NCBI GenBank assembly: GCA_018902845.1
Contig: JAHIPV010000007.1
Location: 6,989-70,988 of the forward strand
Length of the DNA: 64,000 nt
Reading direction: 5' to 3'
From: Patescibacteria group bacterium
Lineage (GTDB): Bacteria > Patescibacteriota > Microgenomatia > UBA12405
Shown in pieces: positions 48,421-55,545 of this stretch. Made by a program: the position numbers and the translations under genes. The notes under the pieces are model-generated. The model did not search any database. It was not told the origin of the DNA and saw nothing but the letters and a program-made list of their open reading frames with translations. How positions within the stretch are numbered: position 1 is the first letter of the stretch; each line of letters opens with the position of its first letter.

Positions 48421-48576
48421 TAGAATTGATTTTCAAAATTTTTGCGTTTTTCTTTATTGTAGCTGATTAATAAACGACTTTTTTTGAATTTGAATTTTGC
48501 CTATGCTACGCTGGCCGCGAATGGGCGGGCGGCCTGCGCTCCGAAAACCGAAAACGATTTTTCTCTGCTGGTGAGC
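46917..48576. mobile_element. serine-recombinase element bounded by ~103-bp near-perfect terminal inverted repeats, abutting the 3' end of tRNA-Glu
   Basis: 46917-47019 (tcaccagcagagaaaaatcgttttcggttttcggagcgcaggccgc...aaaaaagtcgttt) equals the reverse complement of 48474-48576 with ~4 mismatches; the left outer end is the tRNA-Glu 3' terminus. Confidence 0.7.
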
Positions 48577-48760
48577 GATTTGGAAAAAGTTCGAATCCAC
48601 CTCGGGCGGACAGGCTATTTTTTATGAATTATTAAGCTTCCTCCTTCGCCAAGGCTTCGGAAGGACGAAGTCGCTTGGGGGCGGTGACCGCATCCACCGC
48701 CCCCATAGTTTATCCTGAAATTTCTGAAGGACTCCGCCTACTGCCTTTCAGAAATATTGG
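48571..48760. repeat. left arm of large imperfect inverted repeat (partner 55420-55545) with internal hairpin mini-indels
   Basis: The reverse complement of 48665-48742 is identical to 55421-55497 over ~78 bp. Additional matching blocks (taataattcataaaaaat; cgaactttttccaaatcgctcac) are separated by 23-35-bp palindromic indels. Confidence 0.75.
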
Positions 48761-48803
48761 CTTGAACTTAAAAACGCAAAAATTTTGAATGTCTTATAAT
48801 AAG

Positions 48804-49211
48804 TTATTGGTCGTTTAGTTTTTTTATAATTTTTAAAACAACAGTTTTTAAAGATCGTTTTATTTCGTGTTCCCAAATCCTAATAATTTGCCAATTTGTC
48901 TTTTTATAATGCAAGTTAACTTCTTTATCTCGTTTTTTATTTTGTTCCAGTTTCTTTTTCCAAAAAATTATTTTTGTGGAAGGGGCTCTATAATGCTTGG
49001 GGCATCCATGCCAAAAACAAGAATCTACAAAAATCACTGTTTTATATTTTGCCAAAACCAAGTCGGGGTTCCCAAAGTTTTTTTTGACATTTTTTCTGTA
49101 ACGTATTCCTTTTTTCCAAAGAGCCTTTCTTAAAACAATTTCTATTTGACTGTCTTTCTCTTTAACTTTGGACATTATTTCGCTTCTTTTCTTTTTGGAA
49201 AACTTATCCAT
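48804..49211 (-). CDS. vsr: very-short-patch-repair endonuclease (Vsr)
   Basis: ...FVDSCFWHGCPKHY... Vsr catalytic/Zn motif; 135 aa; adjacent to C5-MTase. Confidence 0.75.
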   Translation of the reverse strand: MDKFSKKKRSEIMSKVKEKDSQIEIVLRKALWKKGIRYRKNVKKNFGNPDLVLAKYKTVIFVDSCFWHGCPKHYRAPSTKIIFWKKKLEQNKKRDKEVNLHYKKTNWQIIRIWEHEIKRSLKTVVLKIIKKLNDQ

Positions 49212-54420: not shown

Positions 54421-55243
54421 TACTGATGTCAAAAGGTCACGATCGATAAAAGTCAAACTGCCGCTATTTGAGTGGGAAGAGAAGATGGAATGGGTTGAAA
54501 AAGGAAAAGTTCTAGATGCAAGTCAACACAAATTAAAGCTTGAGACCAGTATGCCCATAACTGATTTGATTTCCGATGTGAAAGTGAGAGGGGGAACGCC
54601 ACCCGTTTTGAGTGTAAGAAGTGGGGGTGATGTTTCAGTTTTTCAAAATTTTGAACAAAAAGAATCCAGTAGCCCCGATGTTAGACCACATGTCCTTCTT
54701 GCTGGAGAAATTGATGCGCCGTATATTGAGACCGCCGCGAAATTACTAGGCAGGATGGATACTTTAAAAAAAGTGAAATTATTTCCGATAGGTACCTGTC
54801 GACAAGGTGTTGGGAGTTTAGGTACGGGGGATAGTAATTTGTGGAAGATCAGTATGGTTGTTAATTCAATAAGCCAAACCATTTCGAGTAAATACATGGC
54901 CCTATTTGATTGTGATTATGGAAAAAATATACAAAAAATAAATGAGATAAGTTGGTCGAAGAATATTACGGTTTTTATTGCACCCCAGCTATATCACACA
55001 CCCATCAAGGACGGTATTGAAAATTTGCTAACTGAAAGGATAATCAAAAAGGCGTATTTAGATCCAGATACGCGTTTATGTTTTGTTGTGCCGAATAGTC
55101 AAAGCAAGATTCCTTGCTGTGTACGTGATGACAGAAAAAATGAGTTGTGTGAATGGGTTTGTAGGATTGGAGAACCAAGAGATTTTGTGAATTTTTATGT
55201 AATTTTTAATATGATTGAAGAGTTTTTGGAAAGTAAAAAATAA
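54413..55243 (+). CDS. hypothetical protein (277-287 aa) translationally coupled to the 970-aa gene
   Basis: Start MASTDVKRS overlaps the upstream stop by 8 nt; Cys-containing C-terminus (CFVVPN...PCCVRDD...CEWVC); no recognised domain. Confidence 0.4.
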   Translation: MASTDVKRSRSIKVKLPLFEWEEKMEWVEKGKVLDASQHKLKLETSMPITDLISDVKVRGGTPPVLSVRSGGDVSVFQNFEQKESSSPDVRPHVLLAGEIDAPYIETAAKLLGRMDTLKKVKLFPIGTCRQGVGSLGTGDSNLWKISMVVNSISQTISSKYMALFDCDYGKNIQKINEISWSKNITVFIAPQLYHTPIKDGIENLLTERIIKKAYLDPDTRLCFVVPNSQSKIPCCVRDDRKNELCEWVCRIGEPRDFVNFYVIFNMIEEFLESKK

Positions 55244-55419
55244 GAACTTGGTTCCGATTTGGGGAAGAGAGCGAACTCTTGGAACAGGAAATTGGGGTTG
55301 TTGAAAATTTTGAATAAATTGTTTTGGTCTCGTTTTGCGAGCGGAGCGAGCAATCCGCCGAAGGCGGGATGTTTTTGTTTTAAATTGTTTTTAAAATCGC
55401 GCATAAAAAATCTGCCGAA

Positions 55420-55545
55420 AGGCAGTAGGCGGAGTCCTTCAGAAATTTCAGGATAAACTATGGGGGCGGTGGATGCGGTCACCGCCCCCAAGCGGAGCCT
55501 AATAATTCATAAAAAATGTTCGAACTTTTTCCAAATCGCTCACAA
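55420..55545. repeat. right arm of large imperfect inverted repeat (partner 48571-48760)
   Basis: See the left-arm entry. The ORFs 55479..55838 and 55562..55774 overlap this arm and are doubtful. Confidence 0.75.

Follow-up and report, generated by a model that had tools for sequence, protein, structure and literature searches.

What is a segment of about 7 kb, bounded by long inverted repeats, doing directly beside a serine recombinase gene? The question is raised by a locus on contig JAHIPV010000007.1 of a Patescibacteria group bacterium (assembly GCA_018902845.1), of which we analysed a stretch of 64,000 nt; this whole stretch is called the window here, and all positions refer to it. The original prediction suggested an invertible or transposable cassette. 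We propose instead that positions 46917-55543 are probably one integrated element of a large serine recombinase (LSR), ~8.6 kb long, in the 3' end of a tRNA-Glu(UUC) gene. The 7-kb segment would be its cargo bay and would lie between two half-copies of the attachment (att) site of the element, one in the right junction (attR) and one in an internal, inverted copy of the element's own site (attP).

Two pairs of inverted repeats beside a tRNA gene

A repeat search and a blastn self-comparison found three collinear inverted blocks between the two ends of the segment, far beyond chance (Table 1). The imperfect inverted repeats that had been predicted to bound it are thus present. The exact block of 78 bp is also real, but the positions first given for it (48665-48742 and 55421-55497) were 4-7 nt off. 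We call the arms of this repeat B. In a MAFFT alignment the left (near) arm was 179 nt long and the right (far) arm 127 nt, and the difference corresponded to two GC-rich mini-hairpin inserts in the left arm only, at 48596-48616 (TCCACCTCGGGCGGACAGGCT) and ~48639-48671. The second is the hairpin that had been noticed as specific to the left arm.

A second inverted repeat, T, flanks the recombinase gene. The left B arm overlaps the right copy of T by 4 nt (GTGA, 48571-48574), which agrees with the earlier remark that it adjoins the right terminal inverted repeat (TIR) of a recombinase element. When 46700-56000 was compared by blastn with the whole window, the B arms had no further copy, and 30-nt and 25-nt pieces of the arms, with up to 3 mismatches allowed, each occurred twice in the window, where 0 occurrences were expected. 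A dispersed repeat present at many unrelated loci, the finding that was to speak against the original prediction, is therefore not what we see: the arms are unique in the window and in relatives are always coupled to a recombinase.

Metagenome assemblies can make inverted joins at repeats, and we asked whether the structure was an assembly artefact such as a fold-back chimera. Both junctions had identical sequence and orientation in GCA_018898085.1, GCA_018895885.1, GCA_018896095.1, ERZ27247113, ERZ27247108 and Logan SRR27456247, which are independent assemblies of the same strain. Thus, the junctions do not appear to be an artefact. As at least five independent assemblies from different assemblers agree, and as the architecture occurs in dozens of other metagenome-assembled genomes and in a chromosome-level assembly, we give almost no credence to a misassembly. 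Two Logan unitigs (L005 and L007) end inside the 78-nt block, and orientation cannot be read from them. An apparently truncated recombinase in GCA_018895885.1 was an annotation call only; the open reading frame (ORF) is intact.

The recombinase carries the Resolvase (PF00239, 2.3e-20), Recombinase (PF07508, 3.7e-13) and Zn_ribbon_recom (PF13408, 3.4e-07) domains, all above the Pfam cut-offs. Its gene runs into the tRNA gene. The final 6 nt of tRNA-Glu (TCACCA) overlap the outer end of the far T arm, and the last 13 recombinase codons (LVTPRGIEPRLPG) are the antisense of the acceptor and of the T-arm proper of the tRNA. The peptide encoded by the far T arm is conserved in LSR homologues, and the C-terminus, including the tail that is antisense to the tRNA, is kept in them. 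By fold prediction, T holds a GC hairpin followed by a T-tract in the sense of the recombinase gene. This hairpin and T-tract would halt recombinase transcripts before they run antisense into the tRNA.

Just upstream of the tRNA-Glu gene lies a pseudo-tRNA-Glu (46694-46844). It consists of a 5' half and anticodon arm broken by several GC mini-hairpins, and this 151-nt stretch is missing from the sister assembly GCA_018817965.1 (L106). The same pairing of pseudo-tRNA-Glu and tRNA-Glu(ttc) is found at another locus, L025, at 9700-9875.

Table 1. Features of the element and its cargo (positions in the window)
Feature	Position	Strand or orientation	Remarks
tRNA-Glu(UUC), putative integration target	46848-46922	+	ARAGORN, Rfam
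Large serine recombinase, 512 aa	46882-48420	-	Pfam
T arm, far copy	46917-47021	-	last ~35 LSR codons; 105 nt, 97% inverted match to 48470-48574
Core TCAC at tRNA/element junction (attL-like)	46917-46920	+	direct repeat of 55540-55543
Y - hairpin m - X region	47033-47101	-	within LSR 3' coding sequence; Y 47078-47101, X 47033-47055
U, 20 nt	48432-48451	-	just upstream of LSR start; family-conserved
T arm, near copy (inverted)	48470-48574	+	left half of internal intact attP-like site
B arm, near copy (left arm)	48571-48749	+	P'-type half-site in first ~25 nt (GCGATTTGGAAAAAGTTCGAA), then inward-facing terminator-like hairpin
Block 1	48571-48595 / 55519-55543	inverted	25 nt, 100%
Block 2	48617-48638 / 55496-55517	inverted	22 nt, 95%
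Block 3	48672-48749 / 55417-55494	inverted	78 nt, 100%
X copy and U copy	48747-48789	+	X copy 48747-48769, U copy 48770-48789; inner edge of near B arm
Vsr	48804-49211	-	PF03852, 1.3e-28
HpaII-type restriction endonuclease	49214-50299	-	PF09561 full length, 4.5e-109
C5 cytosine methyltransferase	50283-51236	-	PF00145, 5.4e-83
970-aa protein	51508-54420	+	NACHT-related, aligns with post-NACHT part
287-aa protein	54380-55243	+	no family; only two homologues
Terminator-like hairpin and Y copy	55354-55415	+	hairpin 55354-55368, Y copy 55392-55415; inner edge of far arm
B arm, far copy (right arm)	55417-55543	-	element right end, attR-like; core TCAC 55540-55543; unrelated flank from 55544

Attachment-site logic of T, core and B

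The four nucleotides shared by the T and B pairs occur three times, as TCAC or GTGA, at 46917-46920, 48571-48574 and 55540-55543. Between the recombinase gene and the cargo, T, core and B form one intact, inverted site (48470-48749). Each half is found once more, one at the tRNA-Glu junction (46917) and the other at the right end (55543), in both cases beside TCAC.

To compare these sites we aligned the junctions of ~30 related loci. T ends with ...ATTTC-N5-TGG-N-NN, the complement of the CCA, the discriminator and the last acceptor bases of the target tRNA, so that in each case the final 6 nt of T reproduce the target's discriminator and CCA end. B begins with ...TTT-GAAAAAA-TTCGAAC (..GAAAAAATTCGAAC), which places TCGAAC at ~+16/17. 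The antisense of the tRNA T-loop also contains TCGAAC, at ~+12/13, which is 4-5 nt nearer to the junction than in B. In serine integrases, the motif bound by the zinc-ribbon domain (ZD) lies at positions 16-24 of attP half-sites and at 11-19 of attB half-sites, a shift of 5 bp (Rutherford et al., 2013; PMC3783163). The shift of TCGAAC, which is seen on the P'/B' side only, matches this geometry. Thus, T-core-B has the properties of an attP and flank-core-tRNA those of an attB, and T-core-tRNA and flank-core-B then correspond to attL and attR.

Based on these results, we propose a model for how the locus arose. The attP would consist of T (the recombinase gene's final ~105 nt), the core TCAC/GTGA and B (the arm of the original prediction). 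Integration at the acceptor end of the tRNA would have split one copy of attP, placing T on the tRNA side (attL, 46917) and B against the chromosomal flank (attR, 55543), while a second, unsplit attP was kept inside the element in inverted orientation. The repeats around the 7-kb segment would thus be the B halves of attR and of the internal attP, and the 'TIRs' of the recombinase would be the matching T halves. In other words, a single att region of ~230-285 nt may be present once intact and once split between the ends of the element. The attB reconstructed in this way is ...GGGGTCAC followed across the junction by AAATGCTTAG..., and the predicted empty site is ...CCCCGTGGGGTCAC followed by AAATGCTTAGATATG. 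We infer that the recombinase itself made these junctions and that the internal copy is an active attP.

Could the segment between the B arms be a transposon in its own right? In that case it would be non-autonomous, the arms would be its TIRs, and the neighbouring recombinase would mobilize it in trans. Long terminal inverted repeats with recombinase-type motifs at their tips and a variable cargo are what such an element would show. However, the arms have no other copy in 64 kb, and in relatives the near arm of each identified B pair adjoins a T arm and usually shares its core (only pairs adjacent to T were considered). The segment is not flanked by a target-site duplication; the 4-nt direct repeat flanks the whole 8.6-kb element. 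Finally, the cores at the two arm tips are in inverted orientation, which permits inversion but not excision. We regard an independent transposon as very improbable.

Recurrence in a family and the inner edges of the arms

The recombinase is a member of a very large family in Patescibacteria. Of the 8000 candidates that were scored, 7837 were LSR homologues at E<=1e-10, and the matches listed came from more than 597 genome loci. Our comparison covered 80 loci in the genomes of different species; their recombinases were 42-56% identical, and one partial match reached 64%. The 3' end of the recombinase gene adjoins an antisense tRNA at 55 of the 80 loci, with more than 15 tRNA identities represented. 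An inverted repeat of the T type (42-160 nt, mostly 96-100% identical) flanks the gene at 65 of them. Additionally, 37 of these 65 loci have a pair of the B type, whose near arm overlaps the near T arm and whose far arm lies 0.65-7.4 kb upstream. B pairs were selected by adjacency to T, and pairs elsewhere were not looked for. In most of the 37 loci the overlap between T and B is 4-11 nt, typically 4 nt, and arm identity is mostly 96-100%. The same plan is found in L009, in L010-L015 and in the chromosome-level assembly L030.

Several relatives show what is constant and what varies. L019 and L021 share a frame in which the far arm and the adjoining sequence Y are 95% identical, the stretch from sequence X through the near arm to T 88%, and the recombinase 81%. 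L019 sits at tRNA-Arg and L021 at tRNA-Tyr, and the cargo between the sequence U and the hairpin-Y boundary is wholly different (X, Y and U are described below). L010 and L013 match exactly as far as the far-arm core, and from there on their sequences are unrelated. In related elements, the arms are 95-96% conserved compared with 81-85% for the recombinase gene. This suggests that the arms are functional along their length. Either gene conversion without crossover or selection on terminator and att functions may maintain their identity within an element.

Two loci may represent reaction products. At L025 (9802-11588), a recombinase gene with T arms but no B arm has tRNA-Glu on both sides, ttc upstream in sense and ctc downstream in antisense orientation. 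Recombination of the internal attP with a second tRNA would be expected to give this layout. L052 (JAOAFZ010000010.1) is a contig of 4636 nt with a 51-nt terminal direct overlap and no tRNA. Its order, recombinase-T-core-B-(Y-like)-cargo-X-U-recombinase, is the junction predicted for an excised circle, and it is suggestive, though only suggestive, of an excised circular form of a family member.

A further element of this family lies at tRNA-Glu(ttc) in L113 (7125-9604); its recombinase is 52% identical, and genes for Vsr, a putative restriction endonuclease and a C5 methylase adjoin it. The only hits in a scan of IMG/VR were a single close relative (40% identity) and five weak, partial matches, which does not point to a phage origin.

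The inner edges of the B arms carry short copies of sequences from the recombinase gene and its upstream region. Directly on the cargo side of the right B arm lies an exact inverted copy of Y (24 nt); on the cargo side of the left arm lie a 23-nt inverted copy of X (87%) and, directly after it, an exact inverted copy of U. Both B arms also contain the same strong terminator-like hairpin (TGGGGGCGGTGACCGCATCCACCGCCCCCA and a T-rich tail) pointing into the cargo. Downstream of the 287-aa gene come a terminator hairpin and then Y, and where the far arm meets the reverse complement of Y there is a further terminator-like site that faces inward. On the opposite strand, the A-tracts of X and Y come after hairpins and look like terminators against read-through from the tRNA. 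We propose that the cargo compartment would be insulated on both sides by these hairpins. Across ~30 loci, an inverted Y lies at the inner edge of the far arm (at 0-3 nt in most), and an inverted X, a variable hairpin and an inverted U lie at the inner edge of the near arm, all in one constant orientation.

Three other ideas about these sequences were rejected. T does not fold into a single long looped-out hairpin that would place X beside the core; only the central GC hairpin was found, with folding z-scores from -2.9 to +0.5. The inner arm ends are not a second palindromic att site that would have Y|X as its partner, as they hold unrelated GC hairpins without TCGAAC. On reasoning alone, none of the simple inversion, tandem-dimer, tandem-inversion-duplication and crossover-in-X models yields the Y, X and U junctions without extra deletions.

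The fragments of the recombinase gene at the inner edges make it possible to ask whether the segment inverts. The recombinase, or RecA acting on the identical block of 78 nt, could flip the 7-kb segment as a phase-variation switch. The arm tips do bear recombinase half-sites, inverted around the same core, and inversion between sister T arms occurs in nature. At L011, a second recombinase gene of the same family, ~9 kb away from the first, lies between its T arms in the orientation opposite to that in L010 and L012, and the rest of the sequence is 99.99% identical (L010 versus L011, positions 1-898). However, the ~30 loci that carry the inner-edge fragments include no flipped cargo. Only one cargo orientation was found in all assemblies of this strain, and in those of two other elements (11 and 24 contigs), including the L010-L015 and P0057 sets; these are assemblies, and a short-read consensus could hide a minority orientation. 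Additionally, one tip site is attR-like and the other attP-like, and large serine recombinases do not recombine such a pair (PMC3783163). Both arms contain inward terminators, and there is no boundary promoter or split gene that orientation would change. Thus, what stands of the earlier reading is that the arms are tied to the recombinase, have tips resembling half-sites and lie within a mobile integrative element. The 7-kb segment itself is unlikely to be an independent invertible unit, and the orientation heterogeneity that had been expected was absent from all same-strain assemblies.

The same fragments might be taken as signs of decay. The cargo segment could be the remnant of a second recombinase element, inserted head-to-head in a nested or tandem fashion, and the repeats and the Y, X and U copies could be functionless scars. 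The presence of recombinase-gene 3'-end and upstream fragments at the inner arm edges fits this idea, and so does a formal property of the excised circle: by derivation, two circular permutations of the monomer U-gene-hairpin-Y-hairpin-X-T-core-B-X-hairpin would be joined in it as an inverted dimer. Scars, however, would decay independently. The boundaries recur to within 0-3 nt in ~30 elements whose recombinases are only 42-62% identical, and the arms are 96-100% identical within elements and more conserved between related elements than the recombinase gene. The kept boundaries and arms point to a function or a recurrent mechanism, and we find a decayed insertion hard to support.

Several points weigh against a single element with a split and an intact att region. 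The model does not account for the retention of an inverted second attP at near-identity and in fixed orientation, nor for the 20-30-nt copies of Y, X and U, which co-vary from element to element. The half-sites on the T side and on the flank side lack a clear ZD motif in the ~30 aligned loci. A look at 13 holA-carrying contigs showed neither an empty tRNA-Glu site nor a circle junction for this element; in all of them the site was occupied or the contig broke off at the T arm. The elements look stable, with a single arrangement in 24 contigs of P0057 and 7 of P0099. Coverage of the L052 contig is low and a scaffold gap interrupts its second att copy, so that this contig could be a repeat-induced mis-join. 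Finally, we recognized no recombination directionality factor (RDF), although the small cargo ORFs were not examined for one; RDFs share no common sequence signature. Scans of a metagenome collection gave 0 hits for the predicted empty junction and 0 hits for the flank alone; the collection thus lacks the locus and is uninformative about the empty site.

What, then, might the internal att copy do? We consider four candidate roles. It may be a standing attP for secondary reactions, as L025 hints. It may make the excised form a two-site circle resembling the 2-micron plasmid, or it may serve as a back-to-back transcriptional insulator. More speculatively, it could be a splint for the self-circularization of a single-stranded copy after DNA uptake. 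In such a copy, as would arise in natural transformation, the internal T-core-B would pair with both ends, and circularization without recombinase would give a dumbbell with a ready-made double-stranded attP.

A broader idea, which we think rather unlikely, is that these Patescibacterial elements form a serine-recombinase platform for gene capture, a functional analogue of the integron that is anchored at tRNA genes. The conserved frame would be far arm-Y ... U-X-near arm-T-recombinase-T-tRNA. It would offer two divergent expression slots, each between U (5') and hairpin-Y (3'), one for the recombinase and the other for exchangeable cargo. Capture, loss or transfer would take place at the inverted internal attP.

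Cargo, neighbourhood and comparison with known systems

The genes enclosed by the arms are those named in the original prediction. By Pfam, the restriction endonuclease, the C5 methyltransferase and Vsr make up an HpaII-like type II restriction-modification (RM) system. The 970-aa protein is 28% identical to residues 287-1150 of NACHT proteins of 1345-1349 aa (P0139; NACHT domain at 59-210). It has no Pfam NACHT hit and lacks the P-loop NTPase part; it corresponds to the post-NACHT, HEAT-like part and belongs to a rare family, with 23 hits in 5.8 billion proteins. Neither PADLOC nor NCBIfam returned anything for the pair of 970-aa and 287-aa proteins. Elsewhere in the family, the cargoes of different loci are unrelated (MFS and DMT transporters, a nitrilase, a radical-SAM protein, a copper oxidase, HTH pairs and RM systems) and are mostly transcribed away from the internal site.

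Directly to the right of the element is a type III RM system (55795-60728), with res at 55795-58254, mod at 59163-60728 and a DUF3800 gene between them (58384-59166; PADLOC DUF3800_VII). This places the element at the border of a defence island. GC skew stays strongly positive over nearly all 64 kb; the one region where it falls to about zero is 47-51 kb, in which the minus strand carries the recombinase and RM genes.

Other repeats were noted in the window. A tRNA-Lys(CUU) gene is followed by two 86-nt tandem pseudo-tRNA-Lys copies and one partial copy (30935-30991, 31317-31502), in which TCCGCCAGCTGGCGGA takes the place of the anticodon-stem strand and TCCGCCGGTAGGCGGACAGGCT that of the T-loop CGAATCC. 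GC-rich mini-hairpins are abundant in this AT-rich genome (for example at 30964, 31330, 36346, 37159 and 40563, and at 7912, 9255, 14098 and 19328). TCCGCC-N3-7-GGCGGA occurs 8 times in the window compared with 0 expected, and GGGCGACCGCAAGGGTCGCCCCTACA occurs 4 times. The insert at 48596-48616 (TCCACCTCGGGCGGACAGGCT) in the left B arm is of the same kind as the mini-inserts of the pseudo-tRNA-Lys copies at 31369-31391 and 31468-31490. Each such mini-insert directly follows a T-loop-like GTT/TTCGAA, and GGCGGACAGGCT is found 3 times where 0.06 occurrences are expected in the window. This pattern suggests a small palindromic insert that may land in T-loop-like sequence, here beside the internal att half-site. 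A 300-nt direct repeat (95% identity) lies at 9767-10066 and 14354-14653, 4.6 kb apart. A 21-nt tandem repeat (CTTCGGTCGGGATGACAAATA) has 3-4 copies at 14252-14335, and related single copies are at 20514 and 24266.

How does this element compare with known systems? Like the LSR elements and prophages phiC31, Bxb1, A118/LI and SPbeta, it has a three-domain recombinase, att sites centred on a short shared core, a distal motif that lies ~5 bp further out in attP than in attB, and hybrid junctions at its ends. It differs from them in its apparent target, the acceptor and T-loop end of a tRNA gene. Targeting of tRNA ends is typical of tyrosine integrases and unusual for serine integrases. It also differs in that its attP overlaps the 3' coding end of its own recombinase gene and in that a second, intact and inverted attP lies inside, which creates two abutting pairs of long repeats. 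Unlike the prophages it has no phage genes, and no RDF was recognized, with the small cargo ORFs not examined for one.

The staphylococcal SCC elements (CcrAB/CcrC) are likewise chromosomal cassettes driven by LSRs, located at the 3' end of a conserved housekeeping gene, with variable cargo that often includes RM genes, and CcrB and XisF are the nearest NCBIfam models to our recombinase. However, its best NCBIfam scores are 58-97 bits compared with cut-offs of 700-900, so the recombinase is not a Ccr member, and the element has a single recombinase, a tRNA target and an internal inverted att copy. Hin, Gin, Cin and Pin switches also place a serine recombinase gene beside a segment bounded by inverted repeats; the Hin gene lies inside its invertible segment, and the T arms bracket the LSR gene likewise. 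Those invertases have ~190 aa, a C-terminal HTH, crossover sites of 26-30 bp and an enhancer, in contrast to the 512-aa LSR and repeats of 105-180 nt found here, and the assemblies examined show no orientation heterogeneity of the cargo. Transposons and MITEs are recognized by dispersed copies and a flanking target-site duplication; here the arms are unique in the window and the direct repeat flanks the 8.6-kb element.

The predicted excised circle resembles the 2-micron plasmid, as both have two unique segments, one encoding the recombinase, between two inverted recombination sites. The 2-micron plasmid, however, is a replicon that uses the tyrosine recombinase Flp and flipping for copy-number amplification, whereas this element is chromosomal and has no visible replication function. 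Integrons share the arrangement of a recombinase beside a slot with unrelated, swappable cargo (compare L019 and L021), but they have a tyrosine integrase, attC hairpins and cassette arrays, none of which is present here. We found no account of this architecture in the literature searched (full text). Thus, what appears to be new is a variant serine-integrase element that combines tRNA targeting, an attP inside the integrase gene and a duplicated, inverted att region.

In sum, an odd local repeat becomes a recognizable plan that is common to dozens of the 80 loci examined. Compact serine integrases of ~510 aa appear to target the 3' ends of tRNA genes, with an intact attP beside their own attL and attR. 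Because of this, the cognate attP and attB can be read from a single genome without an empty site, and this readout would be useful for integrase mining in genome engineering. The inverted second att copy and the co-varying copies of Y, X and U pose a mechanistic question. The mobile elements of Patescibacteria are hardly described. This one brings defence genes, an RM system and a NACHT-related gene, beside a type III RM system, and it may thus illustrate how defence islands form in reduced genomes.

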